DNA of 64,000 nucleotides from an uncultured candidate division Zixibacteria bacterium (GTDB taxonomy: Bacteria; Zixibacteria; MSB-5A5; GN15; FEB-12), in contig CAWDXE010000007.1 in the NCBI GenBank assembly GCA_963806185.1, positions 224,001 to 288,000 of the forward strand, written 5' to 3'. The notes under the pieces are model-generated. The model saw nothing but the letters and a program-made list of their open reading frames with translations, did not search any database and was not told the origin of the DNA. This document shows positions 27,569 to 61,357 of this stretch, piece by piece. Numbering within the stretch: position 1 is the first letter of the stretch; every line of letters begins with the position of its first letter. The position numbers were made by a program, and so were the translations under genes.

Positions 27569-29579
<2,011 letters not shown>

Positions 29580-30913: not shown

Positions 30914-30936
30914 ACCGATGTCCCTGCTGGCGTCGG

Positions 30937-32931: not shown

Positions 32932-32948
32932 GCGTTGCCTTACATCCT

Positions 32949-34072: not shown

Positions 34073-34789
34073 CTACCGGCTCTCTTTCTTCACCCGGGTA
34101 ATGAAATCAAGAATGAAGCTGAATGCCTGATCGCTGATCGCCTTGGTCCGGTTGTTGGCCCAGTTGAAAGCGATCACGGCGGGAATTGCCGCACCTAGAC
34201 CGATGATGGTGGCAAGCAGCGCCTCGGCAATGCCGGGAGCGACAATTGCCAACGATGCGGAGCCGCGCTCGCCAATTGACCAGAACGAATCCATGATACC
34301 GACAACCGTGCCGAGCAAACCGAGAAATGGAGCGGAGCTGGCCGTGGTGGCAAGAAAGACGCTTTTCTTTTCAAGCTTGCCGACCTCATCGGTGAGCGAC
34401 TTTTCCATGGTCATTTCAAGGATGTCGTAGTCCTTGTCGTCAAGGGTGTACCCTTGTGCGCTGCCTGGATTGCTGCCGCCGCGACGTTCGGCCAATTGCG
34501 TGACTTCGTCGTAACCGCTCGCAAAAATCTGGGCGAGGGGGGAACCGGCACATACTTTGGCCTGCCCCTGCGAATCAGACAGTCGTCCCGAACGGCGATA
34601 GAAGGTAAGAAACCGATCGGAATCGTGACGAATCGTGCGGAACTGCCGCCACTTGATAAGTATGATCATCCATGAAACTATGGACATAAGCACTAGGATG
34701 GAGATAATCACCAAGCCGAAGGCTGATGAGTCGCCGAGAATTTGCCAGACCGAACCGGTCAACGCCACAGGGGGTAAGCCATTGAACAT
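34073..34789 (-). CDS. tolQ: TolQ/ExbB
   Basis: APFLGLLGTVVGIM, GIAEALLAT and AIPA. Confidence 0.92.
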   Translation of the reverse strand: MFNGLPPVALTGSVWQILGDSSAFGLVIISILVLMSIVSWMIILIKWRQFRTIRHDSDRFLTFYRRSGRLSDSQGQAKVCAGSPLAQIFASGYDEVTQLAERRGGSNPGSAQGYTLDDKDYDILEMTMEKSLTDEVGKLEKKSVFLATTASSAPFLGLLGTVVGIMDSFWSIGERGSASLAIVAPGIAEALLATIIGLGAAIPAVIAFNWANNRTKAISDQAFSFILDFITRVKKESR

Positions 34790-35269: not shown

Positions 35270-36391
35270 CTAGTCTTCGATCATCTCCACATTTGCCCGG
35301 GGCACGATAGCTCGCTCACCTGTCTCCAGCTCAACTTCAAGCACACGCGCCGACGATTCCGATTGCAGTTTCTGCAGCGGTGAGGGGAGTTCGGTCACTT
35401 TGCCGAGCTGACCGAAATAAGGGTGCCGAATAATTCGAATCGGCGAACCAATCTTAAGTCCTTCGACCTGCCCGCCGTTGTCGGCGGCCAAAGCCTTTTC
35501 GGAGATCTTTGGAACGACGACTTCGGGTCGAATGACGCCGGCGCGAATCTGTGTGGCGCCATTAATACACGCCAGTTCGCCTTCATGCTTCTTCAACAAG
35601 TCGAATGTCTTGTGGGCCATGTTGATCTGGCCGAATCCTTCGGTGACCACCAGCGTGATGCCGATTTCCTCCGAGCCGGTGATGGCGACACCGATATCGT
35701 AGCCGAGGAAATCACGCAGGTCTTTATCGTCAAAGCCGCCGACGACAATCCCTTTGACGCCCAGTTCGATTGCCTTCTTGAGTGCGGGCGCTGTCACAAT
35801 CGAGCCTCCGACGACGATCTTTCCTTTCATCTCGGGGACGATGAGTTCCGGCGAGAGGATAGTCCTGGGATCAGCCGTCGCCACCTTGACGGGGCCGGAT
35901 ACCTCGCCGCCGATGCCGAAAATACCCTGCACGAACGACGCCTGGCAGGAAACGACCACACCCTCGTTGGGAATCACGCTGACCACCTCTCCGACGAGGT
36001 ACGCCTTCACCTCGACCGGAGTCGGTTCGGCTCGCTGCAGGACCTGGCCGGTAACATGCGAAATCGATTCAATTGTCCCATTAATCGTGGCGTTGCAGGA
36101 ATTCTTGAAGATGAACAACGTCGTCGACTGGGCAATGAGCTCGCCTTCCTTGATGGGATCGCCGGCCTTCTTCGTCATGTGCATGGCGATATCTTCCGGC
36201 GGAATGCCCAGTTTGTTGGCGACGTTTATGGGGACGACCGCGCCCGGAAGCAAAGTGCGCGCAACAACCGTGTCGGGCTGTACCTTGTCACCGACCTTGA
36301 CCAGCACGTCTCCCTTCAACGGGAGAATGCGGTTTTTCTTCACCAATATCTTCTCAGTTACTTTTAATCCAGGCGTATACGCGTGGCCCAT
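35270..36391 (-). CDS. Uncharacterised soluble protein (hybrid-barrel-like repeats, alpha/beta core, KOW/SH3-like tail); candidate partner of the GlmL-like ATPase
   Basis: VLVKVGDKV and KKAGDPIKEGELIA...GTIESI lipoyl/RnfC-N-like motifs; AIELGVKGIVVGG core; LKIGSPIRII...GQLGKV tail. Confidence 0.8.
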   Translation of the reverse strand: MGHAYTPGLKVTEKILVKKNRILPLKGDVLVKVGDKVQPDTVVARTLLPGAVVPINVANKLGIPPEDIAMHMTKKAGDPIKEGELIAQSTTLFIFKNSCNATINGTIESISHVTGQVLQRAEPTPVEVKAYLVGEVVSVIPNEGVVVSCQASFVQGIFGIGGEVSGPVKVATADPRTILSPELIVPEMKGKIVVGGSIVTAPALKKAIELGVKGIVVGGFDDKDLRDFLGYDIGVAITGSEEIGITLVVTEGFGQINMAHKTFDLLKKHEGELACINGATQIRAGVIRPEVVVPKISEKALAADNGGQVEGLKIGSPIRIIRHPYFGQLGKVTELPSPLQKLQSESSARVLEVELETGERAIVPRANVEMIED

Positions 36392-36420: not shown

Positions 36421-37167
36421 TTACTTGTTTGCTCTGCGGCGGCGAAGCCGGATAATCACGATGAGCAGAATCACAAACAGTCCGCTGTACGGAACCCAAT
36501 TCCATCTGGCTTTCTTCTTTTCCGGCTCGGCCTTGGTGACCTTTACTTCTTCCTTTGGCAGAGCGGATTGTATGTCGGTCGTGAACGATGCCACGATATC
36601 TTTGAATTCGGGAATGCTCTTGTCCATGAGGGAATCAGGCGCATAGAAAAAGAAATTCGCGATGCCCCGATCGTAGAACTTCATCACCATCAGGTTTCGC
36701 TTGACCGCCTGACCGCCTTCCGTCACCCGGCTGAGGACCGACATAGTATTGGTCGACGCGTCGAAGGTCGGCTGGTCGGACGCCAGGTTGGTGAGGAAGT
36801 TCCCTTGCGGCGCGTACTTGATGTCCTTGCCGAAGGTCTTCGACAATAATTCCTTAACCGAATCCACCTGCTTGGTGGACAGCGCGCCGACTGTATCCAC
36901 GGTGACTATGAGGTATTCGGCAGCATAGAAGGGGTTCGACGTCGCCGGGGCGAACACCGCCTCATACAGATACATTTCAGCGGTGGCCTGGTTTTGCTGC
37001 AAATAGTAATCGACTGTTCGAGTGTCGAGTCGGTCCCATCCCGCGGGATAGGTAATCGCGAACTTGCCGTTAAACGACACAAACGACTCGGCCGAAGCGC
37101 CCGCGGCGACCAACGTCACCAGAGCGACAATCAGGGACACGATGGCATAACGACTGGTACGTTTCAC
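36421..37167 (-). CDS. Exported protein with C-terminal membrane anchor
   Basis: Signal peptide ending ASA, 'FAITYPAGW' PsbP-like start, C-terminal TM + RRRRANK. Confidence 0.7.
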   Translation of the reverse strand: MKRTSRYAIVSLIVALVTLVAAGASAESFVSFNGKFAITYPAGWDRLDTRTVDYYLQQNQATAEMYLYEAVFAPATSNPFYAAEYLIVTVDTVGALSTKQVDSVKELLSKTFGKDIKYAPQGNFLTNLASDQPTFDASTNTMSVLSRVTEGGQAVKRNLMVMKFYDRGIANFFFYAPDSLMDKSIPEFKDIVASFTTDIQSALPKEEVKVTKAEPEKKKARWNWVPYSGLFVILLIVIIRLRRRRANK

Positions 37168-37178
37168 AACTCGTCCTC

Positions 37179-39042
37179 TCAGCGCAGAATCACGCCGTCT
37201 TTGGCCGGATAAATGTCAAGTTCGACCATCCACTTGTTCAGGTAGGAGACGCGCTCCTGTTCGCTGAGCTGCGACAGGTCAAACGGGCGGCCCCGTCCGT
37301 CGAGAATGATCCCGACCACGCCGCCGTGAATCTCCTTCTCAACCTTTACGCCGTTGCCCAGACCGCAGTTGTAGCCACGCTCCGGCTCAAAGGTCGCTTT
37401 GCAGGTTTTCGGGAGGCCGTTGTCCTGCAGGCCCAGTTTGAACAGCTTCATTTCCAGATGATTGAGCGTGCCGCTCACGGTGCCGTCCGGCAGCTCGATC
37501 GTGTATTTCATGACCGGTCCCGGCTTCTTGCTCGTCCCCGCCGGCGCGATGCAGGTGCCCAGGTGGATGAGGCAGTCCTTTTCGAATACTTCCGTTGCCG
37601 CCTTCGGCTGTACCTCGGTCAGTACGCCGAGCTGCGGCATCATGAAGATCGAATCCACGGCGAGTCGGGTGACTCCTTCCGGCATGAAGGAGTCGATCAT
37701 CATGAGCGCCGATTGCTGGCGGCGCGGAGCGTGCGACAGCACGCCGCCTGAGCCGATGAGCATATCGAGGGTCATCATGTTCACAATCGTCGCGCCGGAA
37801 GCCGACTGCTCGAAAGCGTCGGCGATGGTACGCTGCTGCTGGACGCCCTTCAGCACCGAGGCAAAGCTCTTGTGCTGAATGAAGGCGAGGCGGAGCGCTT
37901 CCTTGGCGATCGCCTGTTCGAAAATCAGTTCTTCCATCGACTGCGGGATGGTGGTCGGGCGGATCATCTTGTTCTTGACTCGGTTGCGCAGGTCGCGTTC
38001 TTCCATGACAAACGGCACCCAACGCATCACCATCGGCAGGGTTGCTTCGGCGAAAACGTTTGAAATCGAGTACGACATCCCCAGGTTGGCCGACACCGTC
38101 CGGTTAAATACCGGCGTCTTGCCATCGGGGCGAAAGACCGAAAAAACGTCAGTCGTGGCGCCACCGATGTCGACGCCCACTGCTTCAATCTTATACTGTT
38201 CGGCGATGGTCTGAATGATCAATCCGACCGCGCCGGGAGTCGGCATAATCGGTGCGTCGGCCCAGTCCATCAACTTCTTGTAGCCAGGAGCCTGTGCCAT
38301 CACGTGTTCCATGAACAGTTCGTGGATTTCTTCGCGGGCCGGGCCGAGATTCTCGCGCTCCAGCACGGGGCGAAGGTTGTCGACCATGCGCAGATCAACT
38401 TTGGAAGAGAGCGTTTCCTTGACAGCGTCCCGGGCCTGGACATTTCCGGCGTAGATGATCGGTAGTTTATACCCCGTGCCGAGGCGGGGGCGGGGATCTG
38501 CCGCCGAAACCAGTTCGGCAATTTCGACCACGTGCGTGGTCGTGCCGCCGTCGATGCCGCCTGAAAGCAGTATCATGTCCGGGCGAAGATGGCGGATTCG
38601 CTCAATCTGCTGGTGGGGGAGACGTTTGTCGTTGGACGCGATCACGTCCATCACGATTGCTCCCGCGCCCAGGGCGGCGCGTTCGGCTGATTCGGCCGTC
38701 ATCGACCGGACCACACCGGCCACCATCATCTGCAGTCCTCCGCCGGCGGACGATGTCGAGATGAAAACGTCGGTGCCGGTTCGACCGCTGGCCGGACTGA
38801 TGAACTTGCCCTGCTCGTCGAGAATCTTGCGGCCGGATAAGTTCTTCGAGTTCAGCGACGGCGTTTAGTACGCCCATGGTTACATCTTCAAACGGCGCTT
38901 CGACCGTTGTCGGTGCCTCACCACGGGACACCAGCCGGTATTCGCCGTTTACGTATTCAATGAGGATTGCCTTGGTCGTCGTCGAGCCGCAGTCGGTGGC
39001 GACGATTACTTTGATATCGTTCTGGTTCGCAAACTTGGCCAT
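37179..39042 (-). CDS. GlmL (glutamate mutase L)-like ASKHA ATPase (frameshift ~38838)
   Basis: ATDCGSTTTK, TSSAGGGLQM, LSGGIDGG, YAGN, MPTPGAV, VDIGGATTDVFS, RTVSANLGMSYS and GSGGVLSHAP. Confidence 0.85.
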
Positions 39043-46473: not shown

Positions 46474-47760
46474 TTGCTCGTGTCCCGAATCAAAACGGCG
46501 CCTCTCTCTTTTATTGTCTGGCTCGCCCTGACAGTCCTCGTCGCCTCCACTCCGGGAGCGGCGCAAGAGAAAGTCGCGGCGATTACCGACACGTTACCCT
46601 CTCCCTCTCCACTCACCCCGGACACTCTGGCCATCGCCAAAACGCCCCATCCACCCACGGATGTTCATGCTGAAGATCTGGACAATGACGCCGGCGGATC
46701 GCTCGAAATTGTCTGGACCTTGTCGTCTGACGACGTTTCTCCCTCCGGCAGAGTTCGACATTATCGAATCGAGCGGGCGAAATTGACCGGCGGCCAACCT
46801 GGCGGGTTTACTGAAGTCGGCGACGTATCGGCGGGGACCAAGGTATTTGACGACGGCCGGACCAGCGACGACGAGACATACATATATAGGGTCGTTGCGG
46901 TAAACGATTCCCTCTTTGATGACGAACCGGTCTGGCGATTTGTTGCGGCATCGGCCCCGAGCAATTCTGCGAAATCTTCGGCCCAGTGGTTCGACATGAG
47001 ACGGATCAATGTCTTCGTCGGCGTACTCCTGTTATGTGGCTTCATCATCTATTATATATCTCGGGCCAAGGCGGGTAAGGAGATCTTCATCCGCAAGATT
47101 GCCGGTCTTGAAGCGGTTGATGAAGCAGTCGGTCGAGCCACCGAAATGGGCAAGAAGATTTACTATATCCCCGGCTCTCAGGATATGGACAACGTACAGA
47201 CCCTGGCTGGAATCACCATCCTGGGCCGTGTCGCTGAACTGGCGGCGCAATACGATTCCAAATTGGAGGTGCCGGTTTCCCGCTCGCTCGTGATGGTGAC
47301 CTGCCGAGAAGTTTTGAAGGAGTCGTATGCGCGAGCCGGGCGAGTTGACGCGTTTCACGACGACCAAGTGAAATATCTGACCGACGATCAGTTTGGATAT
47401 GCGGCCGCGATTGACGGTATGGTGGTACGGGAACGACCGGCCACTATTTTTCTGATGGGCTCATTTTATGCCGAATCGCTGGTTCTGGCCGAGACCGGCA
47501 ACAGTGTCGGCGCGATTCAGATTGCCGGTACCGGGCAGCCGTCGCAGTTGCCCTTCTTCGTGGCGGCATGTGACTACACGCTGATCGGTGAAGAATTGTT
47601 CGCCGCCTCAGCTTATCTAAGCAAGGAGCCCCGGCAATTGGGCTCGCTGAAGGGGCAGGACATCGGCAAGGGGCTGATCCTGGTTTGTATCGTCATCGGC
47701 ATTATTCTGGAGACCTTCCACATCTGGAATATGCACAGGCTTTTTACGGTGATCGAATAG
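46474..47760 (+). CDS. Module 1 subunit A: Fn3-like ectodomain + DUF6754-like domain
   Basis: Signal peptide, Fn3-like region (Y-YRVVAV), TM, IRKIAGLEAVDEAVGRATEMG, QIAGT...QLPFFVAACDYTLIGEELFAASAYL, C-terminal TM. Confidence 0.85.
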   Translation: MLVSRIKTAPLSFIVWLALTVLVASTPGAAQEKVAAITDTLPSPSPLTPDTLAIAKTPHPPTDVHAEDLDNDAGGSLEIVWTLSSDDVSPSGRVRHYRIERAKLTGGQPGGFTEVGDVSAGTKVFDDGRTSDDETYIYRVVAVNDSLFDDEPVWRFVAASAPSNSAKSSAQWFDMRRINVFVGVLLLCGFIIYYISRAKAGKEIFIRKIAGLEAVDEAVGRATEMGKKIYYIPGSQDMDNVQTLAGITILGRVAELAAQYDSKLEVPVSRSLVMVTCREVLKESYARAGRVDAFHDDQVKYLTDDQFGYAAAIDGMVVRERPATIFLMGSFYAESLVLAETGNSVGAIQIAGTGQPSQLPFFVAACDYTLIGEELFAASAYLSKEPRQLGSLKGQDIGKGLILVCIVIGIILETFHIWNMHRLFTVIE

Positions 47761-47761
47761 T

Positions 47762-48409
47762 ATGCGGCGCGAAGTACCATTGCTGATCACCGGAATTGTC
47801 GGAATCATATTCGTCATTCAATATTTCATCCCCCATTTTCCATTCGGCCGCATGGCCAATTGGTTTGCCGACTGGTTCAGTATTGTTGCAGCCTGTGCGG
47901 TGTGGCTGGGTGTCCTGAATCTTCTGAAAATGTCGCTTGAAAAGATCGTCGCTCGTAAGGCGGATTGGGGCTACGCCATTATCATTGTCGTCTGTTTCTT
48001 CCTGATAACGATTATTGGGTTTGCCGAGGGGCGGGATTCGCGCAACGTGGGCACCGGCTTCGACTGGCTGTATACCTACGTGTATTCGCCGCTCTCGTCA
48101 ACGATGTTTGCCATTCTGGCGTTTTTCGTCGCCTCGGCATCCTATCGGGCTTTTCGCGCCAGGAATCTTGAAGCGACCTTGCTTTTGCTTTCCGCCTTTT
48201 TTGTGATGCTCGGCCGCGTACCGGTAGGTGATCTGCTCACCGGATGGCTGCCGGATTCCATGCAGCTCTCCGGCCTGGCCACGTGGATTATGAACTTTCC
48301 GAATACGGCCGGCCAGCGCGCCATTATGATCGGCATCGCTCTGGGTACCGTGTCGTCGTCATTGCGCATTATCCTCGGGATCGAGCGTTCATATCTGGGA
48401 GGGGAGTAG
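47762..48409 (+). CDS. Module 1 subunit B: polytopic membrane protein
   Basis: About 6 TM; MFAILAFFVASASYRAFRAR and RAIMIGI...LGIERSY. Confidence 0.85.
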   Translation: MRREVPLLITGIVGIIFVIQYFIPHFPFGRMANWFADWFSIVAACAVWLGVLNLLKMSLEKIVARKADWGYAIIIVVCFFLITIIGFAEGRDSRNVGTGFDWLYTYVYSPLSSTMFAILAFFVASASYRAFRARNLEATLLLLSAFFVMLGRVPVGDLLTGWLPDSMQLSGLATWIMNFPNTAGQRAIMIGIALGTVSSSLRIILGIERSYLGGE

Positions 48410-48412
48410 GGC

Positions 48413-49432
48413 ATGACCGAACACGCCAAAGCCAATCCCAAAATGGAGATCATCGCAACAGCGGCGGCGTTCGTTGCGCTAATCCTCATCTATGTGGGGC
48501 GGCAGAATGACTGGTTCCCGGCGATCGTGATGGGAACGCTGGTGTCGACGGTGGTCGTGTGCCTGATCTTTGCCGGGCTCCTCTGGATTCTGGTGCGTAC
48601 GATTCGGGGTAAACAGGCCGAGCGCCGCATTGTCTTTCTCTTTATTGCGCTGGCAGTGTCGCTGCCGTTGTTCATGAGCCTCAAGCAGACCATCAAGATT
48701 TCGCCGGAAGCCGCCACCTTTTATGCCGGGTTGGAGAGTCTCCCGGCGGGTTCCAAAGTGCTCGCCACTTTTGACTACGATCCGCCGTCGGCGCCGGAAC
48801 TCCAGCCGATGGCAGAATCGTTCTTCCGCTATGCGTTTCACAAGAATCTAAAGGTGATCATCATGGGGCTCTGGCCGCAAGGACCTCAGCAGGCGAACCT
48901 GGCGCTTAACAAGATTCTCGCTGAGGATGATATCAAGGCGATGGGGCTGCGGTATGGCGTTGATTATGTCAATCTCGGTTTTCAATCGGGCAACGAGTTT
49001 GTTATTCAGCGCATGGGTTCGGATATTCGATCAATGTTCCCCACCGACATGAATGGAACGCCGTATGACAGTCTGCAACTTGTGCACAACGTGAAGAACT
49101 TCTCCAACATTGATTATTCCTTCAATTTGTCAGCGGGGTATCCCGGTACCAAGGAGTGGGTGTTAGTGGCGGTAGACCGGTACGGCCTCAAGATCGGCGC
49201 CGGCAACACGGCCGTGCAGGTGACGGAAATGTACCCGTACGTTCGCACGGGCCAGCTTATCGGCATTCTGGGCGGCATGAACGGCGCAGCGGAATTTGAA
49301 AAGCTTACCAAGGTACTCGGCAAAGGAACCCGGTTCATGTTGTCGCAGTCATTCGCGCACCTGATGGTCATTGCCTTCATCCTTATCGGGAATGTCGCCT
49401 ATTTCAGGCTCGAGCGGAAAGGACGGAAGTAA
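48413..49432 (+). CDS. Module 1 subunit C: membrane-anchored protein with large soluble domain
   Basis: N-terminal TMs, FDYDP...ELQPM, GVDYVNLG, YPY...GILGGMNGAAE, C-terminal TM. Confidence 0.85.
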   Translation: MTEHAKANPKMEIIATAAAFVALILIYVGRQNDWFPAIVMGTLVSTVVVCLIFAGLLWILVRTIRGKQAERRIVFLFIALAVSLPLFMSLKQTIKISPEAATFYAGLESLPAGSKVLATFDYDPPSAPELQPMAESFFRYAFHKNLKVIIMGLWPQGPQQANLALNKILAEDDIKAMGLRYGVDYVNLGFQSGNEFVIQRMGSDIRSMFPTDMNGTPYDSLQLVHNVKNFSNIDYSFNLSAGYPGTKEWVLVAVDRYGLKIGAGNTAVQVTEMYPYVRTGQLIGILGGMNGAAEFEKLTKVLGKGTRFMLSQSFAHLMVIAFILIGNVAYFRLERKGRK

Positions 49433-49438
49433 GGCGCC

Positions 49439-50107
49439 ATGGAAAGCGGATTCATGTACCACTTCGCGCTCTGGGTAGCGGCCTTTCTCACGCTCGGCAT
49501 TATCTCATTTCTGTACCGTGACAACGTTTGGTACAAGATCTGCGAAGCGGTATTTGTCGGCATTTCGGCCGGGTACTGGTTTGTCACCTACTTCTGGGAC
49601 AACATCTACGGCAAATTCTGGATCGGCGTCTTTCCGCCTGGCGGCGGCGCCCGCACTGACGACTGGTATATGCTGCTCTTTGGAGGTGTACTGGGGATTC
49701 TCATGTTGCTGCGGCTGGTGCCGAAAATTGGTTGGATTTCGCGATGGCCGCTGGCCTTCATCGTCGGCGCCACGGCCGGTCTGTACCTGATTACGTACTT
49801 CGCGTCCAACGTGATGGTGCAGCTCCAGGATACGGTGCGACCTCTTTTCGGCGCCGCGGGCGAGACAGTCTCAATGTACGACGCCATCGGCAACATTGTC
49901 GTTGCCGTTGGCACCTTCAGCGGTCTGATCTATTTCTTCTTTTCCAAAGAACATAAGGGCGCCTTTGGAGCTACCGCCAAGGTGGGCATTTTCTTCCTCA
50001 TGATTACTTTCGGGGCATCATTCGGCTATACGGTTATGAGCCGTATGTCATTGCTCATCGGGCGCATTGATTTTCTCTTCACCGATTGGTTAGGATTGAT
50101 ACGCTAG
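49439..50107 (+). CDS. Module 1 subunit D: polytopic membrane protein
   Basis: AAFLTL..SFLYRDN, VGISAGY, YFFFSKEH and FGASFGYTVMSR. Confidence 0.85.
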   Translation: MESGFMYHFALWVAAFLTLGIISFLYRDNVWYKICEAVFVGISAGYWFVTYFWDNIYGKFWIGVFPPGGGARTDDWYMLLFGGVLGILMLLRLVPKIGWISRWPLAFIVGATAGLYLITYFASNVMVQLQDTVRPLFGAAGETVSMYDAIGNIVVAVGTFSGLIYFFFSKEHKGAFGATAKVGIFFLMITFGASFGYTVMSRMSLLIGRIDFLFTDWLGLIR

Positions 50108-51357
50108 TGCCACGACACGTCTCCATACATCGCAGGGCATACTCCCGTTTTGCGCTCTCGCTATTGGGTGTCTGCTTCTTTGCGGTCAATTCCCTCCTGG
50201 CCCAGGCCGACGCCGGCCTCACCGGAGATTCGTCTATTGTCGCCGTCCCGGTTGCACCGGCCACGTCGTTGATTGCGGAGGACCACAAGTACGACAACGG
50301 CGATGCCATCAGTTTGACCTGGGTGCCGTCGATCGACGACCAACTGCCGGCAGGTAAGCTCACCGGATATGCGCTGTTTCGCATCACCAATTCCTCCGCA
50401 CCCGAAAAGATCGCCGACCTGTTCCCCGGCGCCAACAATTATCTCGACGAGGGTCTCAGCGGCGACAGCAGCTACTCCTACTATCTTGTAGCGCTCGCCG
50501 GCAATGCGCGCTCGGAATCGATTCACACGGCGCAACTGACCCCCCACGTGGAATGGCTGAACCTCTCCCGGCTCAATTTGCTGCTCATCGCGGTCGTCTT
50601 CGGCGGTGCCGTAATCTACTTTATCGAGACCGCTCGCCGAGGGAAGAAGTATTTCATTCGCAAGATCGCCGGGCTGGATGCGGTCGACGAGGCAATCGGC
50701 CGGGCCACCGAGATGGGCCGGCCCATCCTCTTCATTCCAGGCATTCAGGATATGGACGACGTGCAGACCATTGCCGCCATTACGATTCTGGGGCGGATCT
50801 CTCGCACCATCGCCGATTATGATTCAAAAATTCTCATGCCCGTGTCACGTTCGCTCGTGATGACGGCCGCTCGTGAGACCATCAAGACGTCGTTTGCGGC
50901 GGCGGGTCGCCCGGATGCGTACAACGATGATTTTGTGCACTACGTCACTGATGAACAATTCGGCTACGTGGCGGCAGTTGACGGTATTATGGTGCGCGAG
51001 AAACCGGCCGCGACTTTCTTTCTCGGCGCGTTTTTCGCCGAATCGCTGATCCTGGCCGAAACCGGGAATTCGATCGGCGCCATCCAGATTGCCGGCACGG
51101 CCATGCCCACGCAGATCCCGTTTTTTGTCGCGGCCTGCGACTTTGCGCTGATTGGGGAGGAGCTGTTTGCAGCTTCGGCGTATCTGTCGGGTGAGCCGAA
51201 GCAACTCGGGTCGCTGAAGGGGCAAGATGTCGGCAAGGGAATCGCGCTGGCGACGATTCTAGTCGGCACGGCCGCCGTCACCATTGCCCTGGCCTGGCAT
51301 AATGAGTTCTTTGGTTCCGTGCTCCGGGTGCTTAACTCTGTCTTCAGGACGAACTGA
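50107..51357 (+). CDS. Module 2 subunit A (Fn3-like + DUF6754-like)
   Basis: Paralogue of A1: IRKIAGLDAVDEAIGRATEMG and FVAACDFALIGEELFAASAYL. Start uncertain; GTG 50107 overlaps the D1 stop. Confidence 0.85.
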   Translation: MPRHVSIHRRAYSRFALSLLGVCFFAVNSLLAQADAGLTGDSSIVAVPVAPATSLIAEDHKYDNGDAISLTWVPSIDDQLPAGKLTGYALFRITNSSAPEKIADLFPGANNYLDEGLSGDSSYSYYLVALAGNARSESIHTAQLTPHVEWLNLSRLNLLLIAVVFGGAVIYFIETARRGKKYFIRKIAGLDAVDEAIGRATEMGRPILFIPGIQDMDDVQTIAAITILGRISRTIADYDSKILMPVSRSLVMTAARETIKTSFAAAGRPDAYNDDFVHYVTDEQFGYVAAVDGIMVREKPAATFFLGAFFAESLILAETGNSIGAIQIAGTAMPTQIPFFVAACDFALIGEELFAASAYLSGEPKQLGSLKGQDVGKGIALATILVGTAAVTIALAWHNEFFGSVLRVLNSVFRTN

Positions 51358-51362
51358 CGGTT

Positions 51363-52034
51363 ATGAAACGCGAAGTCCCACTGCTCATCACCCTGTTTGT
51401 CGCCTCGCTCCTGATCATTTCCGTATTCATCCCTCCACTTGAGAGTGCCGGAGAGAATTTTACTCTGTTCTTCGACATCATCGCCGTCTTTGCATTCTTC
51501 CTTGGCGGGGGGAACCTGCTGCGTGTCCATCTGGACAAAGTGATAAGTCGACGCGACCAATGGGGATATTCCGTAGTGACGCTCGCCGGTTTCCTGGTCA
51601 TGCTGATCGCGGGCATCTCCAAGATCGGCTTGGCGACTATCGCCACGCCGGTGACCAATGACGGCGGCTGGTTCCAGACGATCTTTGCCAACGTGATGTC
51701 GCCGCTCAATTCGTCGATGTATGCGTTGCTGGCGTTTTTTGTCGCGTCGGCTTCGTACCGGGCGTTTCGCGCCAAAAATCGCGAGGCAACTCTGCTGCTG
51801 ATTGCTGCGTTCATTGTTCTTCTGGGTCGCACACCGTTTGGCACGGTGCTTACATCTTGGGTGCCGGACAATTTCAGTCTGCTGCAAATTCCCAATTTGG
51901 CGATTTGGATCATGAACTCACCCAATCTGGCCGGCCAGCGGGCAATTATGATCGGCATCAGTCTCGGCGTGGTGTCAATGTCGTTGCGCCTCATCCTCGG
52001 GATTGAACGAAGCTACCTGGGGGATGACAAATGA
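51363..52034 (+). CDS. Module 2 subunit B
   Basis: MKREVPLLIT, AFFVASASYRAFRAK and GQRAIMIGI...LGIERSY. Confidence 0.85.
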   Translation: MKREVPLLITLFVASLLIISVFIPPLESAGENFTLFFDIIAVFAFFLGGGNLLRVHLDKVISRRDQWGYSVVTLAGFLVMLIAGISKIGLATIATPVTNDGGWFQTIFANVMSPLNSSMYALLAFFVASASYRAFRAKNREATLLLIAAFIVLLGRTPFGTVLTSWVPDNFSLLQIPNLAIWIMNSPNLAGQRAIMIGISLGVVSMSLRLILGIERSYLGDDK

Positions 52035-52951
52035 CGGCGTCCCATATCGGCCTGATCATATCTCTCTGTATCATCGGCGGCGGCCTGGTCTGGATGCTCG
52101 TGCGTACGATCAGGGGCAAGGTTGTCGAGCGCCGCATCGTTTTTCTCTTCATCGCCGTCTCTGTACTGGCGCCGATTCTCTTCCAGTTCACTTTCACCGA
52201 GACGGCCTCGCCGATTGTCAAAGGTGTCTTCGAACGGATAGAGGATCTTCCCCCGCGCTCAACCGTGCTGATCTCGTTTGATTTTGACCCGGCGATGGCG
52301 CCGGAAGTCCATCCGATGGCCAACGCACTTGTCCGGCACTGCCTGGTGAAGAAGCACAAAGTGGTCTTCATGGCCCTCTGGGCCACCGGTCAATCGCTGC
52401 TCAATCAGACACTGACCAATGTCGTAAGAGCCGAATTCCCCGAGGTCACCGAAGGGATCGATTACATCAATCTCGGCTACAAGGCGGGCAATGAGGGCGT
52501 ACTCAACGTCATCGTCACCGACCTGCGGAAGATGTTCCCCAACGATGTCAACAACCGCCCGCTCGACAGTATTCCCTGGATGAAAGACATCAAGTCTTGT
52601 CGCGACTTCAATTTGATCCTGACCATCGGCGGTGGTAAACCGGGAGCCAAAGAATGGGTGCTGTTTGTCGGCGATCCGGGCAATGTGCCGATCGCGGCCG
52701 GCCTCGCCGCGGTGTCTACGCCGCAGTTGTATCCCTATTATCCGAAACAACTTGTTGGCCTGTTGGGCGGAATCAAAGGGGCGGCTGAGTACGAATCGGA
52801 ACTTCGTAAGCGATATCCTCAGTTCCTGGCCGTCCCCGCACCTGGCCTTCTTATGATGGGACCACAGACGCTGGCTCACATGGTCATCATCATCTTCATC
52901 ATTTTCGGCAATATTGCCTACTTCCGTGGGCGGAAGCGAGGGGAGAAGTGA
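52031..52951 (+). CDS. Module 2 subunit C
   Basis: ERRIVFLFIA, FDFDP...EVHPM, GIDYINLG and YPY...GLLGGIKGAAEYE; ATGA overlap with B2. Confidence 0.85.
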   Translation: MTASHIGLIISLCIIGGGLVWMLVRTIRGKVVERRIVFLFIAVSVLAPILFQFTFTETASPIVKGVFERIEDLPPRSTVLISFDFDPAMAPEVHPMANALVRHCLVKKHKVVFMALWATGQSLLNQTLTNVVRAEFPEVTEGIDYINLGYKAGNEGVLNVIVTDLRKMFPNDVNNRPLDSIPWMKDIKSCRDFNLILTIGGGKPGAKEWVLFVGDPGNVPIAAGLAAVSTPQLYPYYPKQLVGLLGGIKGAAEYESELRKRYPQFLAVPAPGLLMMGPQTLAHMVIIIFIIFGNIAYFRGRKRGEK

Positions 52952-53766
52952 TGAAGCGCTCAACCGTGATCCTCTCCATCATCATAGCCATTCTGTTCAT
53001 CATCAGTTGGGCCCTCAAGGCTCGGACTGCAGCGCCGGACGACAACGGAATGCTCAATGGATTTCTGGTGACTTTCGCCGCCTTTCTGACGTTGGCGATC
53101 TTCTCGTTCCTGTACCAGGACAATCCGTTTTACAAATTTGCGGAGCATCTTTATGTCGGCGTTTCCGCCGCCTATTGGATGACACTTGGATTCTGGTCGA
53201 CTATTGTTGGAAACCTGATTCCGCGGTTGTCGGAGAGAATATCGGGTTGGTTCCTGGTACCGTACAATCCGGGGGAATACAATTTCATTTACTGGATACC
53301 GGTCATACTCGGTCTGCTGTTGCTGATGCGGCTTTCGCCCAAAGGGGGGTGGTTATCGCGCTGGGCGCTGGCCTTCATCGTCGGCACGACGGCTGGATTG
53401 AATTTTGTGCGCTATCTCCGCTCCGATTTTGTGGAACAGGTTTCAGCCAGTTTTCTCCCGCTGCTCGGGACAAACTGGCAGGGGTTTGGCGCATTCATCG
53501 CCAACATAGATTTGAATGCCTCAGGTCAGTTCGTGGCTATTTTGTCCAACTGGGTAATATTTACTGGCGTTGTGTGCGGAATTATCTATTTCTTCTTCTC
53601 CAAAGAGCACACCGGCGCTTTCGGCAAGGCCTCGCGCTACGGAATCTGGATTCTTATGATCACCTTTGGCGCCGCATTCGGCTACACGGTGATGGGCCGT
53701 ATCTCGCTCTTGGTTGGACGACTGACATTTCTTTTCAGGGACTGGTTGGGAATGACGATTAGTTAA
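52951..53766 (+). CDS. Module 2 subunit D
   Basis: AAFLTL..SFLYQDN, VGVSAAY, YFFFSKEH and FGAAFGYTVMGR. Confidence 0.85.
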   Translation: MKRSTVILSIIIAILFIISWALKARTAAPDDNGMLNGFLVTFAAFLTLAIFSFLYQDNPFYKFAEHLYVGVSAAYWMTLGFWSTIVGNLIPRLSERISGWFLVPYNPGEYNFIYWIPVILGLLLLMRLSPKGGWLSRWALAFIVGTTAGLNFVRYLRSDFVEQVSASFLPLLGTNWQGFGAFIANIDLNASGQFVAILSNWVIFTGVVCGIIYFFFSKEHTGAFGKASRYGIWILMITFGAAFGYTVMGRISLLVGRLTFLFRDWLGMTIS

Positions 53767-53792
53767 CGCTTCTCTTGTGACAGAGAGGGAGT

Positions 53793-55317
53793 ATGCAATA
53801 CATTCTACGATTCTGTCTGGCCATGGCAATGCTATCTGCCGTTGCTTCGGCCCAGACCGATCCCCCGCAGGCTGCGCCCGGAGATTCGGCCGCGACTGCG
53901 GTGGTGACCGCCACACTTGCCGTTCCGCCGGCACCGCCCACCGAGGTAGCCGGTCGGGACACGAAGAATGATCACGGTCATTCGGTTACGGTGACCTGGC
54001 AAAAATCGGCTGACGATAGCGCCGGGGCCAATACCGTGATCGGGTACCAGGTTTTTCGCTGGATTCCATTTTACATCGATACACTGGACTTGCTTCGCCG
54101 CCGGATCGACTCGGTCGCTCAAAAGCGCGCCGAGTACGAGGTCTACATCGATCGCTCGGGCAACCGGATCAGCTCCGCGACGCCCGAAGCGCAGAAAGTA
54201 ATCCAGGATTCCGTCAGCGGGATGGAAGTCGCGCAGCCGAAACTCGCGGCTCTCGAGAGCCAGTTGCGCGATGAGTTTGAGACTGGCGTGCAGACGCTCC
54301 CCGAGAAGCACAAGTCGTATCCGAACCATGGCGAATTCAGGGCGGTTGGCGCCACCCCCGCCGGGACTACTTTGCTGATCAATTCCGGGTCCAAAGAGAA
54401 GGAATCAGGATCATACATCCCCGACTATTCTGATTTCTACTACAGAGTTGATGCGCTGACGGTCGACACAACGGTGCGATCGTCCTCCGAGGTCTGCGGA
54501 CCGGTGCAATGTAAGGGGCAGTGGTTCAACACCGGGCGTATACCCGTCCTGACCGCGGTCCTGATTTTCGCGGCACTAACCATGTGGTTTGTCTACCGTG
54601 CCAAACGAGGCGCCGACCTCTACGTTCGGCCGCTCGCCGGCATTGAGGCGGTCGACGACGCTATCGGTCGTGCCACCGAAATGGGCAAACCGATTCTTTA
54701 CGTACTTGGTCTGGGCACAGCGGCCGACATTGCCACTATCGCCTCATTCACGATTCTCGGCCGCGTCGCCAAGCGGGTGGCGGAATATCAGACCGACCCT
54801 GATTGTGCCGTGCTACGATCCGATCGTGATGTCGGTCGCACAGGAGGTGGTCAAGTCGTCCTATCTCGACGCCGGCCGCCCTGACGCCTATAAGGAAGAT
54901 CACGTCTATTTCGTCACGCAGTCGCAGTTCGCATACGTCGCTGCAGTCAACGGTATCATGCTTCGCGAGCTGCCGGCGACCAACGTCTACATGGGCAAGT
55001 TCTACGCGGAATCGCTGCTGCTGGCGGAAACCGGGGCGCTGGCCGGGTCGATTCAGATCTCCGGCACCGATGAGGTGTCTCAGATTCCATTCTTCGTCGT
55101 CGCGTGTGACTACACGCTGATCGGCGAGGAACTCTACGCCGCGTCGGCCTATCTTGCGCGCGAACCCCTGCTTCTGGGATCGCTCAAAGCGCAGGATTAT
55201 GCCAAGGCGGCCGTTATCATTCTGGCCATTGTCGGTATGCTGGCGGTCAATATCGGCGCCGCGGCGAATTCTCAATGGCTGATGGCTTTCAAAAACATTT
55301 TCCAGGTCGTGGACTAG
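53793..55317 (+). CDS. Module 3 subunit A (Fn3-like with helical insert + DUF6754-like; frameshift ~54797)
   Basis: VRPLAGIEAVDDAIGRATEMG in fragment 1; FVVACDYTLIGEELYAASAYL in fragment 2. Confidence 0.8.
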
Positions 55318-55327
55318 GAGGGCGCAG

Positions 55328-55978
55328 ATGAAACGACAACTTCCATTTGTCCTGGTGTTCATCTCCGGCGTCTTCATGATTTTCCAGTACTTCGTGCCTC
55401 ATGAAAAGTCGGAATGGCTCTACGAATACTTGCTCGACTGGATCACGATCATCGGGATATTTGCCCTGGCGCTCGGGATCTGGTCGCTGATTCTGGTGAG
55501 CGTAGACAAAATCAAGAACCGGCGGCTGCACTGGCAGTACAGCATCGTAACGCTGGCCGGCCTGTTCCTGATGATTCTCTTCGGCTTTACCGCTCAAATC
55601 GACGGTCACTGGGGATTTTACTTCTATACGCAGGAAGGGCTCACCAATCCGCCGTTCCGCCGTTTCTTTGAGTTTGTGCTGACGCCGATTCAGGCGACTA
55701 TGTTCGCGCTGCTGGCGTTCTACATCGCATCAGCGGCCTACCGCGCTTTCCGCGCGCGCAATGTGCTGGCGACGTTGCTTCTGTGTGCCGCCATCATTCT
55801 GATGCTCCGCTTCTCACCGGGCTTCGGTGACTACCTGTCCAAGACGGCCAGTTGGCTCCTCAATGTGCCGACGCTGGCGGCCAACCGTGCGATCATCATC
55901 GGCATCGGACTCGGCATGGTGGCCACCGCGCTCAAGGTCATTCTCGGCATCGAACGCGGCTACATGGGGAAAGGGTGA
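55328..55978 (+). CDS. Module 3 subunit B
   Basis: MFALLAFYIASAAYRAFRAR and RAIIIGI...LGIERGY. Confidence 0.85.
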   Translation: MKRQLPFVLVFISGVFMIFQYFVPHEKSEWLYEYLLDWITIIGIFALALGIWSLILVSVDKIKNRRLHWQYSIVTLAGLFLMILFGFTAQIDGHWGFYFYTQEGLTNPPFRRFFEFVLTPIQATMFALLAFYIASAAYRAFRARNVLATLLLCAAIILMLRFSPGFGDYLSKTASWLLNVPTLAANRAIIIGIGLGMVATALKVILGIERGYMGKG

Positions 55979-55981
55979 TCT

Positions 55982-56867
55982 ATGGCACAACAAGAAAATA
56001 TCTTTGATCACCTGATGTCGCTGGATCGCCGGTGGGTATTTCTCCTGCTCGTGATCGTCTGCGTTATCGGCTATGTCGCCGACTACGAAGTGCCGATTCT
56101 GGTCCAGCGTGAAGTGAAGTCGATCTACACGTTCATTGACACGCTAAAACCGAGACCAGACGATCTTCGTCGCGATCGACTACGATCCGAACTCTCAGGC
56201 CGAGCTCCATCCGATGACTTACGCCATCATGGAGCAGGCCTTCCGCAAGAACCTGAAGGTCATCTTCACGGCTCTGTCGCAGAACGGCCCCGGTATGGCC
56301 GATCAGGCGATTCGAGATATCGCCGATTCGGTTAAGCTCGATCGCACCTACAACGGTGTTGCGTACAAGGGGCGCGAAATCGTCAACGGTGTCGATTACG
56401 CGTTTCTCGGCTACAAACCGTACTACGCGCTGCACATTCTCGGCATGGGGCAGAATTTCCGCCTACCGTTCCCGAACGACTACTACGGCACGCCGCTGGA
56501 TTCGCTGCCGGTGATGAACGGTATCCTGAATTACAGTCAGGTGGCGTGTGTGATCGATCTTTCGTCGGGAAATATTACCGACGCCTGGATTTCTTACGGT
56601 CAGGGACGCTTCGACTTCCCGCTGGCGCTCGCGGTGACCGGCGTGCAAGCCACGCAGTACTATCCGTTTCTCAACTCCGGCCAGGTGTTCGGCATCATGG
56701 GTGGAATGCTGGGAGCGGCGCAGTATGAGAAACTGGCCGATAACCCGGGGCTGGCCATAGACGCCATGCGTGTGCACCTGCCCGCGCACTAGATGATCAT
56801 TGCATTCATCATCCTGGGCAATGTCGGCTTTCTCATGAGCCGTCGCGCAAGAAAGTTAGGGAGGTAA
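55982..56867 (+). CDS. Module 3 subunit C (frameshift ~56155; in-frame TAG at 56790)
   Basis: DRRWVFL, DYDP...ELHPM, GVDYAFLG and YPF...GIMGGMLGAAQYE. After the TAG the same frame gives MIIAFIILGNVGF, matching the C-termini of C1 and C2. Confidence 0.78.
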
Positions 56868-56872
56868 GGCAT

Positions 56873-57673
56873 ATGGAATTCTCAACCTATCTCTGGACGA
56901 CGCTCGCCGCTTTCCTGACTTTGTGCACGTTTTCGTTTCTGTACAAGGACAATCCGTTCTACCGGTTCGCCGAACATCTCGTGGTCGGCGTCTCGGCGGG
57001 CTACTTCGTGATTATTCTCTGGCACAATTCGCTCGTGCCGAACCTGTTTCAGCGATTGGCTGATGGCACGCCATGGCTCCTGTGGATTGACTCGTCGCAC
57101 CCCTGGTACCTGATACCGGCCCTGCTCGGCTTCATGATGTTCTCTCGTTTTTCGAGAGATTACACCTGGGTTTCGCGATGGCCGATGGCGCTGTATATCG
57201 GTATTTCCGCCGGCCTGGCCGTGCCGCTTGAAATGTCAAACCGCGTCAACAAGCAGTTGTATGCGGCGATGTCGAACTTCAATTGGTCGTACTTCGGTGG
57301 GTCGGGGTTCCTCGACACCATGTCAGGCTATTCGCAATTGATCATCTTCGTCGGTGCGATCGCGGCGCTCATATACTTTTTCTTTTCCAAGGCCCATACC
57401 GGCGCCTTTGGCGGAATCGCGAAATTCGGCTTGTGGATCCTGATGATCGGCTTCGGCGCGTCGTTCGGCTTCACGGTTATGGCGCGTATCTCGCTGTTTA
57501 TCAATCGTATTCAGTTCCTCGATAAATCATGGATTCAGACCGCCTTCAATGCGGAGAATGCGCATTACAACGGCGGGTTCAAGATTGTCTTTGCCCTCGT
57601 CGTCCTTATTGTTTTGGCGTACATTGTGTTGGAGTTGTTGAAGCACCTGCGGCGGCAAAGTGCGCAATCGTAG
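56873..57673 (+). CDS. Module 3 subunit D
   Basis: AAFLTL..SFLYKDN, VGVSAGY, YFFFSKAH and FGASFGFTVMAR. Confidence 0.85.
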   Translation: MEFSTYLWTTLAAFLTLCTFSFLYKDNPFYRFAEHLVVGVSAGYFVIILWHNSLVPNLFQRLADGTPWLLWIDSSHPWYLIPALLGFMMFSRFSRDYTWVSRWPMALYIGISAGLAVPLEMSNRVNKQLYAAMSNFNWSYFGGSGFLDTMSGYSQLIIFVGAIAALIYFFFSKAHTGAFGGIAKFGLWILMIGFGASFGFTVMARISLFINRIQFLDKSWIQTAFNAENAHYNGGFKIVFALVVLIVLAYIVLELLKHLRRQSAQS

Positions 57674-57725
57674 GGCAAAGTAGTCAAAGTTTTTATATTG
57701 CATCGCAAACACCGGTATTAAACAT

Positions 57726-57764
57726 TGGGCGAGCGGAACTCAGAGCCGTTCGCCCAGTTCTTTT
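57726..57764 (+). terminator. Probable terminator closing the 12-gene run
   Basis: TGGGCGAGCGG...CCGTTCGCCCA stem followed by GTTCTTTT. Confidence 0.6.
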
Positions 57765-57946: not shown

Positions 57947-57975
57947 TTGACATACGGGCAAAGTTTTCCTATGAT
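57947..57975 (+). promoter_or_regulatory. Near-consensus sigma70 promoter
   Basis: TTGACA-N17-TATGAT preceded by a T-rich UP-like tract. Confidence 0.75.
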
Positions 57976-58057
57976 TGGCGCGGTGTGAGGAACCACCACC
58001 TATTGCTGTTGTAAATTCAAGGGTAGCAACGTCAAACACAGGGAAAGTGAGGTGGGT

Positions 58058-58420
58058 ATGGCTCGGACTGGCAAATCTGCCCTAGCCACATCTGCATCCA
58101 CCGAGGCTACCAGCCAGGGGGAACAGCCGAGAGAAGCGGGCACACACGCTACCGCCAGATTGTCGACCGCGGAGGCCCGTCGGGAATATCAGCGTCGATA
58201 CTACCAAATGCACAAGGAAAAGGCTAAGGAGTATCAGCGGCAGTACAACCTGACACACAAGAAGAAAGCGCGCGGGGGACGGGGCAAGACGAGTTTCTTG
58301 CAGTCCCGCGAAGTTGTCCGGTCGACGTTTAACACCGGTGATATCATGCACTCGCCGGTCGAAAAGACGCTCAAAATGCTGGAAAAGATCATCCGTGGAG
58401 AACGTTTATTCACCATGTAA
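58058..58420 (+). CDS. Small basic hypothetical protein
   Basis: RBS GAGGTG; own promoter and terminator; REYQRRYYQMHKEKAKEYQRQY helix followed by KKKARGGRGK. Confidence 0.7.
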   Translation: MARTGKSALATSASTEATSQGEQPREAGTHATARLSTAEARREYQRRYYQMHKEKAKEYQRQYNLTHKKKARGGRGKTSFLQSREVVRSTFNTGDIMHSPVEKTLKMLEKIIRGERLFTM

Positions 58421-58576: not shown

Positions 58577-61357
58577 ATGCCAGCCAAAACAGTAACCGGG
58601 GCAAAGAAGGCGGCTGTCGAAAAAGCTCCCTCTCAGAAGCCTGCTCGTAAATCCAGCGCCGAGGCCAAGGCCGCCCATTACACAGGGAAGTATTACTACT
58701 TCTTTGGCGACGGCAAGGCCGACGGCCGTGCCGATATGAAGGAACTTCTCGGTGGCAAAGGGGCCAATCTGGCCGAGATGACCAATGCCGGGGTTCCGGT
58801 GCCTCCGGGTTTCACCATCACCACCGAGGTCTGCCGCATATTCTATCAGAATAATATGCGCGTCCCGAAGGATATCGACCATGAACTTGAAGAATTGGTC
58901 GGTCAAGATTGAGAAAGCCTCGGGCAAGAAATTCGGCGATCCGGCCAACCCGCTGCTCGTGTCCGTCCGCTCCGGCGCCAAGTTCTCCATGCCCGGCATG
59001 ATGGACACGATTCTTAATCTCGGTCTTAACGAGGAAACGGTCGAAGGGCTCATCAAGAAGACCAACAATCCGCGCTTCGCACTGGACAACTATCGCCGCT
59101 TCATTGCCATGTTCGGCAATGTCGTGCTCGGCATCGACAAGGAAGAATTCGAAGAAGTCATTACCAAGAAGAAGAAAGAGCGCCGCGTCAAGCAGGACAG
59201 CTCGCTTCAGGTCGACGATCTCAAGGACATCGTCAAAAAATTCAAGCAGATTATCAACCGCAAGTCTGGCGAGCAGTTCCCGGATGATCCTTGGGACCAG
59301 CTTCGCATGGCCCGGGACGCCGTCTTTCGCACTTGGAACAACCCGCGCGCCATCACCTATCGGCGTCTGAACAACATTCCCGCCGATCTCGGCACGGCGG
59401 TCAATATCCAGGCGATGGTCTTCGGTAACATGGGGAATCAATCGGCGACCGGTGTCGGCTTCACCCGTAATCCTTCCAACGGCGTCAAGGAATTCTACGG
59501 TGAGTATCTGGTCAACGCGCAGGGCGAGGATGTCGTGGCCGGCGTACGTACGCCGCAGCCGATCAAGGATCTGGGCAACGAGATGCCGGCGATCTACAAG
59601 CAGCTGAAGGACATCACCACGCGCCTCGAAAAGCACTACCGCGACATCCAGGACTTCGAGTTCACCATCGAGGAAGGTGAGCTGTACATGCTGCAGACGC
59701 GCAACGGCAAGCGGACGGTGCAGGCGGCAGTCAAGATCGCCGTCGACATGGTGAAGGAGAAGCTGATCACCAAGGAAGAGGCGCTCATGCGGATCGAGCC
59801 GGCACAGATCGATCAGCTGCTGCATCCGCGCATTGACCCGAAGGCGACTTATGATGTCGTCGCCAAGGGATTGGCCGGCGTCGCCGGGCGCAGCCTGCGG
59901 TCGCGTCTACTTTACGGCCGAAGACGCCGTAAAGCACGGCGCAGAAGGAATCGGTGATTCTCGTCCGTGACGAAACCAACCCGGACGATATCGAAGGGAT
60001 GAACGTCGCAGTGGGCATTCTGACCGCTCGCGGCGGGATGACCTCGCATGCGGCGGTGGTTGCGCGCGGTATGGGCAAATGCTGTGTCACCGGCGCCGAG
60101 ACGGTGCGCGTCAATCATCATAAGAAATTCTTCCAGGTCGGCACGCTGACCATTAAAGAAGGCGAAGTTGTCACGCTCAATGGTTCGACCGGTGAAGTCA
60201 TTCTCGGCTCGGTACCGACAATTGAGCCGGAATTGTCCGGGGAATTCTCGGAGCTGATGAGATGGGCGGACGAAATCCGTACGCTCAAAGTTCGCGCCAA
60301 TGCCGACATCCCGCGCGATGCGATCCAGGCGATCAAGTTCGGCGCCGAAGGGATCGGCCTCTGCCGTACCGAGCACATGTTCTTCGCCGAGGATCGCATT
60401 CCGATCGTGCAGGAGATGATTCTGGCCGATACGCCCGAGGCCCGTCAGGCCGCCCTCGACAAGCTCTTGCCTTTCCAGAAGAAGGATTTCAAGGGGTTGT
60501 TCGACGCCATGGACGGATTGCCGGTGACTATTCGGACGCTCGATCCGCCGCTTCACGAGTTCCTGCCGCGGAAGGAAGAGATCGAGGCCCGTATCAAGGG
60601 GCTGGATCCCAAAGGGGACAACTACGAGGACGATCTTGCGGCATTGCAGAAGACGCTCAAGCGAATCGACGAGCTCCATGAGCTGAATCCGATGCTGGGT
60701 CATCGCGGCTGCCGTCTTGGCATCGTTTTCCCCGAGATCACTGAGATGCAGGTGCGCGCAATCATCCAGGCCGCCTGTGACATCCAGAAGACCGGCAAAA
60801 AGGTATTCCCGGAAATCATGATTCCACTGATTGGACATGTTAACGAGTTCCTCAACCAGAAGGAAGTAGTGCATCGGGTTGCGAATGAGATGATCAGCAA
60901 GACGAAGATGAAGGATCTGAAGTATCTGGTCGGTACGATGATCGAAATTCCCCGGGCGGCAATAACGGCCGACGAGATAGCCGCTGAGGCCGAGTTCTTC
61001 AGCTTCGGCACCAACGATTTGACGCAGATGACGATGGGCTTCTCGCGCGACGACGCCGGGAAGTTCCTCGGCTATTACGTCAAGAACGGTATCCTCCCGG
61101 GCGATCCCTTCGTGTCGATCGACCAAAACGGCGTGGGCCAGTTGGTCAAGATGGGCAAGGAGAGGGGTCGGAGCGTTCGTCCTGACCTCAAGGTGGGTGT
61201 TTGCGGTGAACATGGTGGTGACCCGACTTCGATAGAGTTTTTCCACTCGATCGGTCTCGATTACGTCTCCTGCTCGCCCTACCGGGTGCCGATCGCACGG
61301 CTGGCTGCGGCCCAGGCGACGATCAAGTCAGGTGACAAGGCGAAGAAGAACAAGTAA
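58577..61357 (+). CDS. ppdK: Pyruvate, phosphate dikinase (frameshifts ~58895, ~59880, ~59945)
   Basis: [39 protein letters not shown] (phospho-His), [19 protein letters not shown] and CGEHGG. Confidence 0.93.

Follow-up and report, generated by a model that had tools for sequence, protein, structure and literature searches.

A triplicated four-gene membrane module in Zixibacteria and the actin-fold ATPase that accompanies it: a candidate import system

Three ABCD modules in tandem

We analysed a 64,000-nucleotide stretch from an uncultured Zixibacteria bacterium (GenBank assembly GCA_963806185.1, contig CAWDXE010000007.1, positions 224,001 to 288,000; hereafter the window), in which a four-gene membrane module, ABCD, stands three times in tandem in the vicinity of genes for an actin-fold ATPase, E, and its partner, F. 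The modules occupy 46474-57673 as twelve co-oriented genes on the plus strand, in the order A-B-C-D repeated three times, with a spacing of -22 to +26 bp between intact open reading frames (ORFs). Among the copies within the window, protein identities are 35-55% with E-values of 1e-121 to 1e-18, arguing that the ABCD repeat is not due to chance. A preliminary description of this DNA had proposed twelve packed genes in this order, ten subunit-specific motifs and a terminal hairpin. Coordinates, spacing and copy identity bear out the arrangement, each of the ten motifs is present exactly three times, once per module, and a terminator-like hairpin followed by a T-rich tail is found at 57724-57758 on the plus strand (-22.7 kcal/mol, z -2.4, with 6 of 200 shuffles equally good). 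An Rfam search of 38000-59000 returned no match, and promoter and terminator scans of the window gave scores near chance.

In the first module, A1 (46474-47760) begins with a signal peptide and a periplasmic fibronectin type III (FN3)-like domain, followed by the DUF6754 region, i.e., a predicted cytoplasmic Rossmann-like domain between two transmembrane (TM) helices (PF20539, E = 3e-123). B1 (47762-48409) contains about six TM helices with both termini predicted inside and belongs to no family, whereas C1 (48413-49432) has extra N-terminal TM helices and then a predicted periplasmic Rossmann-like domain, again between two TM helices. D1 (49439-50107) is a multi-pass membrane protein with a core predicted to start outside; a homolog was modelled with three short/long helix pairs. 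In the second module, A2 (50086-51357; PF20539, E = 4e-122) more likely starts at a GTG at 50107 that overlaps the D1 stop codon, B2 (51363-52034) is 51% identical to B1, C2 (52031-52951) is 40% identical to C1 and shares an ATGA overlap with B2, and D2 (52948-53766), 44% identical to D1, overlaps C2 and carries an extra N-terminal TM helix. The third module comprises A3 (53793-55317), in which PF20539 matches in two pieces, B3 (55328-55978; 38-39% identical to B1 and B2), C3 (55982-56867) and D3 (56873-57673; 41-43% identical to D1 and D2), the last with an extra C-terminal TM helix.

The A3 and C3 reading frames are broken in the present assembly, the former by a frame change near 54797 and the latter by one near 56155 and an in-frame stop at 56790-56792. 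Because the third-module A and C are single ORFs in three relatives used as queries, and because ligA (27569-29579), ppdK (58577-61357) and the ATPase gene E in the window are likewise split by frame changes, these breaks are likely assembly errors (indels). The B genes of two other modules of this genome are also frame-split. Between the array and ppdK, at 57947-58420, a strong sigma-70-like site (11/12) precedes a 122-aa basic ORF without family.

In total, the genome holds five ABCD modules, and the two outside the window, on contigs C5 and C7, encode short A proteins without the outer domain. The fifth module (L008:6515-9449) lies divergent from an operon that reads, by sequence, as a sugar-type ABC importer. 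Position by position, the modules of 12 close tandem loci, and of three loci from more distant families (L127-L129), best match their counterparts here, which points to an old triplication; in other families, two of the three module types are accompanied by others. Judged from sequence, the three copies are old, position-specific paralogs. Recent tandem duplication or an assembly repeat was considered and rejected, as the copies are less than 78% alike in short DNA patches, and the position-specific orthologs across the phylum also speak against recent duplication.

Sequence searches agree with the earlier assignment of A to DUF6754: A1 and A2 score 410 and 407 bits against PF20539 (cut-off 27), covering profile positions 2-255 of 257. 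DUF6754 proteins are often annotated as fibronectin type III domain-containing protein; long A homologs do carry FN3 repeats, and A2 of a relative gives an fn3 match at E = 8e-4. B, C and D match no family in Pfam or NCBIfam. PDB sequence searches with profiles of A, B, C, D, E and F yielded nothing significant, B and D had no match among PDB sequences at E up to 10, and an ESM Atlas search with C and D returned unnamed clusters only. The view that the module resembles no known transporter in sequence holds for A-D in Pfam, NCBIfam and PDB sequences, as do the reported absences of signature motifs: neither a Walker A motif nor CxxCH occurs in the three forward frames of the module region, and no DctM, DctQ, DctP, TctA (TRAP and TTT secondary transporters) or major facilitator superfamily profile matched at E up to 0.1. 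Searches of A-D, E and F against ATP-binding cassette (ABC) families, and against the S component, T component and ABC ATPase families of energy-coupling factor (ECF) transporters, gave no match either. Among the subunits compared, A is the best conserved, with a median identity of 58% (B, 44%; C, 38%) and 35 invariant columns in 104 sequences, many of them polar; B and D contain invariant polar and charged residues beside or inside their membrane helices.

Spread of the module and its linkage to E and F

PF20539 is found in all 121 genomes of the phylum, with 2-6 matches each, and in none of 14 control genomes, and the closest named homologs are from Zixibacteria. A scan of GTDB contigs gave an estimated ~5000 matching stretches, the best 73 of which were taken as loci for comparison; these include WOR-3, Cloacimonadota, Marinimicrobia, Fermentibacteria, Eisenbacteria, Planctomycetota, Acidobacteriota and others. 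The full ABCD order is present at 81 of the 84 A genes in these loci that have 3 kb of room, with 39 A genes at contig edges excluded. Conserved ABCD synteny, which had been set as a check on the preliminary description, is thus found across many phyla. Of the remaining three, one lies in a locus containing Ns, one has C fused to D and one belongs to an interrupted module, the last (L080:7356-13900) having gaps of ~2.0 and ~1.4 kb between A and B and between C and D. Subunit B alone forms 3141 clusters at 50% identity, with homologs in the cultured planctomycetes Thalassoglobus neptunius and Planctomicrobium. Planctomycete B proteins, those of cultured species included (L068:4182-6017; P0121-P0240), carry a ~390-aa unclassified insert between TM3 and TM4, inside a predicted outer loop.

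On the minus strand of the window, E (37179-39042) encodes a long GlmL/MutL-like ASKHA (actin-fold) ATPase of ~620 aa (frame change near 38840), the single match to PF13941 in the genome. It matches PF13941 over its full length, its phosphate-1, phosphate-2 and adenosine motifs (DCGSTTTK, DIGGATTD and IGSGGVLSH) are near-invariant in 30 homologs, and its identity across phyla is 63-87%. In an intact relative, E scores below all three NCBIfam GlmL cut-offs (232/475, 218/600 and 173/204, score/cut-off). F (35270-36391, minus strand) is a conserved 373-aa partner of E with a barrel-sandwich-hybrid start and a KOW-like end, both weak matches (for the former, E = 0.014 here and 7e-7 in a fused homolog). 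It is found in 119 of the 121 phylum genomes, as a single match in 112 of these, and L063, L075 and L114-L118 encode E and F as one fused protein. The fusion in L114-L118 is a second, divergent E-F protein of ~930 aa, present in five phylum genomes with no ABCD in the DNA examined around it; third E/F types, similar to this divergent fusion, were seen in four Planctomycetota genomes. Between E and F in the window lies G (36421-37167, minus strand), which encodes a secreted, C-terminally anchored, weakly PsbP-like protein found in close relatives only.

The start of F recalls NqrA and RnfC, and two six-helix subunits of opposite predicted orientation, B and D, bear a likeness to NqrD/E, as if the system were an energy-converting ion pump related to Rnf/Nqr. 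However, neither B nor D (nor C) has a Cys column conserved at 90%, gene maps of the operons contain no flavin or Fe-S subunits and an Rnf/Nqr family search of A-D gave no match, making such a pump highly improbable.

In the window, E lies 7.4 kb from A1, whereas in 13 related loci the two are divergent and 142-2088 bp apart. E or F is present within the DNA examined in 31 of the 73 loci and in many cases shares an operon with A, immediately ahead of it; these linked loci include Planctomycetota, Acidobacteriota, Fermentibacteria, Marinimicrobia and Coatesbacteria. Among 20 operon regions chosen for adjacency, the single operon order x1-x2-E-F-A-B-C-D recurs, where x1 encodes 2 TM helices plus a small domain and x2 a protein of ~125 aa, neither with a family. 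In the present genome, x1 and x2 are located on contig C1 (~177100-178000; L154:7099-8030), far from the remaining system genes.

Co-occurrence extends this linkage to whole genomes. Within 101 Planctomycetota genomes, A and D share one set of 28; of this set, 27 have x2 and 26 have both E and F, and the other 73 contain none of A, D, x2, E or F. A and F occur in the same 4 of 121 Acidobacteriota genomes, a small third phylum has A in 14 of 14 and F in 13 of 14, and all 10 genomes selected from further phyla have F; we attach no P value to these counts since related genomes are not independent. Glutamate mutase E (PF06368) was found in none of the 26 E-positive Planctomycetota genomes; it exceeds the cut-off in 2 of the 101, neither of which has E or F, and glutamate mutase was not found in the source genome (82% complete). 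E tracks the membrane module, not glutamate mutase. The neighbourhoods and phylogenetic profiles of DUF6754, suggested earlier as a check, therefore show a fixed ABCD, yet the module alone is not the whole system, as E and F co-occur with it. The proposed four-protein complex does correspond to an uncharacterised and strictly conserved four-gene membrane unit, but this unit is accompanied by two small genes and by an actin-fold ATPase, present as a single copy, with its partner. Taken as a whole, x1-x2-E-F-A-B-C-D appears to be a real, undescribed eight-gene system.

Because E is GlmL-like while the usual client, glutamate mutase, is absent, ABCD might itself be the client, an enzyme bound to the membrane whose active sites lie in the Rossmann-like domains, with E-F as an ATP-dependent reactivase or cofactor chaperone. 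Diol dehydratase reactivase offers a comparison for such a role. The many polar residues among the invariant columns of A would suit an enzyme, but no B12-, heme- or Fe-S-type motif is seen in A-D, a conserved Cys occurs once, in A, and no enzyme fold stands out in fold searches of the A and C-D models (see below), so that we consider this quite improbable.

The arrangement varies among lineages. In L134, L135 and L137, a second subtype with a short A has the order x1-x2-A-B-C-D-E(-F), and it has its own E/F copy where both subtypes coexist. L139 and L140 have E/F-A without adjacent B-C-D, and D is located elsewhere in those genomes. What is encoded between E and F also differs by lineage (L147, L149 and, in the window, 36421-37167): the extracytoplasmic proteins found there, namely G, a PD40 propeller and a 1150-aa anchored protein, are unrelated to one another. 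The segment 39461-45935 between E and A1, absent in the 13 related loci, encodes a dioxygenase-like protein, an aldo/keto reductase, a YfiR-like protein with a CHASE8-HAMP-MCP receptor and a 615-aa fibre-like protein with a weak Bdello_MAT_N match.

Predicted architecture and mode of action

The model of A (pLDDT 92.9) consists of a TM helix, a helix, six beta/alpha units, a helix and a TM helix. In the model of a natural C-D fusion, C (pLDDT mostly 85-98) has the same element order plus two small inserts; the underlying alignment combined 30 of 77 C rows and 30 of 72 D rows, from random subsets aligning in register, and the fusion protein modelled may itself reflect a lost stop codon. Lys/Arg bias places the domain of A in the cytoplasm (4.6 after TM1), in agreement with its signal peptide and FN3-like domain, and that of C outside (K/R at both termini). 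By the same measure, B has six TM helices and starts inside and D starts outside, an orientation that the extra terminal TM helices of D2 and D3 fit. Topology and models thus uphold the earlier description of B and D as multi-pass membrane proteins and of A and C as subunits with soluble domains. These soluble domains would face opposite sides of the membrane, and models and charge bias together suggest two inverted pairs, A/C and B/D. In a covariation analysis of 143 paired modules, kinship outweighed other signal, with the top pairs joining opposite sides of the membrane, and the result was left unused.

Foldseek searches with the A model and the C-D model found no match at E of 0.001 or better, and wider fold searches gave generic Rossmann matches with many ties (best Z 10.0 for A and 9.5 for C). 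A and C share 16 of their top-50 entries over the same target ranges (e.g., 1kjn, 5but, 4g65 and 4j16). One sugar-binding protein appears in the search with C, at rank 31 (Z 7.7) amid generic matches; the searches with the C-D model are dominated by the C domain and say little on D.

We propose that one shared actin-fold ATPase powers several paralogous import modules, a reading to which we give a probability of roughly 45%. One E-F pair beside five modules, the highly conserved cytoplasmic domain of A and the variable outer domains together point to a shared motor with cargo-specific units. Each ABCD set would likely assemble as one inner-membrane transport unit, and all five sets would be powered by the one E with its partner F. 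B and D, in predicted opposite orientations, would form the membrane core, and the Rossmann-like domain of A in the cytoplasm together with the domain of the same layout of C in the periplasm would complete a pseudo-symmetric unit. E-F may dock on A at its cytoplasmic domain, which is strongly conserved, and a cycle of ATP binding and hydrolysis by E-F may make the B-D core alternate between facing outward and facing inward. Cargo specificity would be set by the more variable outer domains, i.e., C, the FN3 domain of A and the inserts of B, in which case the old paralogous modules would handle different cargos. The cargo would most likely be a small organic nutrient.

The predicted opposite orientations within A/C and B/D would also suit an ion-gradient-driven carrier or gated channel of the inverted-repeat type, with E-F only as a regulator or assembly chaperone; RCK rings on Ktr/Trk channels, or GlmL remodelling its enzyme, would be the comparison for such gating. 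RCK domains (KtrA 5but, TrkA 4g65 and KtrC 6i8v) are indeed among the top matches of both A and C (Z 7.8-9.8), and GlmL is described as a chaperone (PMC4682846). However, sirtuins, dehydrogenases and transhydrogenase domain III tie with the RCK domains among these matches, and the 63-87% identity of E across phyla, together with the retention of E-F in almost every module-bearing genome, suggests more than a dispensable regulator. We consider a carrier or channel of this kind unlikely.

The neighbours of the system point in two directions. TonB-ExbBD follows the module in 8 of the 73 loci and a TonB-dependent receptor in 4, which favours uptake, whereas in the window tolQ-tolR-tolA-tolB-pal-cpoB (30149-34789, minus strand) comes after E-G-F on the same strand, which favours an envelope link; TolQ/ExbB genes adjoin the system in 10 of the 73 loci. 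The system might accordingly be an envelope machine that exports, flips or inserts a lipid, glycolipid or protein, or else a trans-membrane sensor relaying from C and FN3 to A and E-F. Its universal, multi-copy presence in the phylum, the shared operon direction of E-G-F and tol-pal, the long FN3 repeats on some A proteins and the extracytoplasmic proteins repeatedly inserted between E and F would all fit. Against this, the system is patchy in Planctomycetota and Acidobacteriota, unlike a core envelope pathway, and no recurrent kinase, cyclase or DNA-binding output gene was seen in the neighbourhoods examined. An envelope or sensory role is, in our view, also rather unlikely.

Several observations weigh against the import reading as well. 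The only described relative of E, GlmL, is described as a chaperone that reactivates glutamate mutase (PMC4682846; see also PMC3958899), rather than a transport motor, so that E could be an assembly or gating factor. The co-occurrence counts come from related genomes, and no F match was found in 2 of the 28 A-positive Planctomycetota genomes or in 1 of the 14 genomes of the third phylum. The D part of the C-D model has a pLDDT of only ~60-80, and the fold matches are generic Rossmann proteins, not solute-binding proteins in particular. Sequence and profile comparisons (hhalign) found no homology between A and C or between B and D, and a comparison of the B and D C-terminal parts scored below 48 of 60 shuffles; the pseudo-symmetry is thus drawn from models and charge bias only. 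The neighbours of 79 scanned proteins named no cargo, being mixed with only single peptide or solute transporters, and the run of E-G-F into tolQRA-tolB-pal also fits an envelope role.

Comparison with known systems

Open-access papers yielded nothing on DUF6754, PF13941 or this gene set, although subscription papers and supplements may mention the genes. A1-A3 are full members of DUF6754 (PF20539), a catalogued domain without a function; its entry covers A only, and B, C, D, F, x1 and x2 have no family. E shares PF13941 and the actin-fold motifs with GlmL/MutL (PF13941; NF040745, NF040744 Or-4 and TIGR01319), the accessory ATPase of B12-dependent glutamate mutase, yet it is ~130 aa longer, falls below the cut-offs, pairs or fuses with F and tracks a membrane module. 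Should E-F do no more than gate or assemble ABCD, the eight genes would still make up an apparently undescribed system. It is universal in sampled Zixibacteria and spread over many little-studied phyla, and its maintenance at 2-6 copies in all 121 phylum genomes suggests that it likely matters for the feeding of these abundant uncultured bacteria. The B homologs in cultured planctomycetes make it directly testable.

In RCK-gated Ktr/Trk channels and transhydrogenase domain III, likewise, a Rossmann-type domain is tied to a membrane part, and both appear, with ties, near the top of the fold matches for A and for C. These matches are generic (Z ~8-10), however, no pore family is matched and, of the two domains, one would lie outside the cytoplasm by prediction. 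In ECF transporters, and in ABC importers that share an ATPase, one energising module serves several substrate-specific membrane modules. The likeness of the present system to ECF transporters would be one of organisation only, with one E-F for modules spread over the genome; in contrast to ECF and ABC systems, it has no ABC nucleotide-binding domain and no S or T component match, and its ATPase is of the actin fold. Known ATP-driven transport relies on few motor types, namely ABC, P-type and F/V-type. We tentatively advance the system as a possible new class of primary active transporter, with a pseudo-symmetric four-subunit core, an actin-fold ATPase as its drive and one E-F pair for several cargo-specific modules. 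If this is correct, the actin-fold ATPase would join the known motor types of transporters as a new one, and a family of 3141 B clusters would gain a role.

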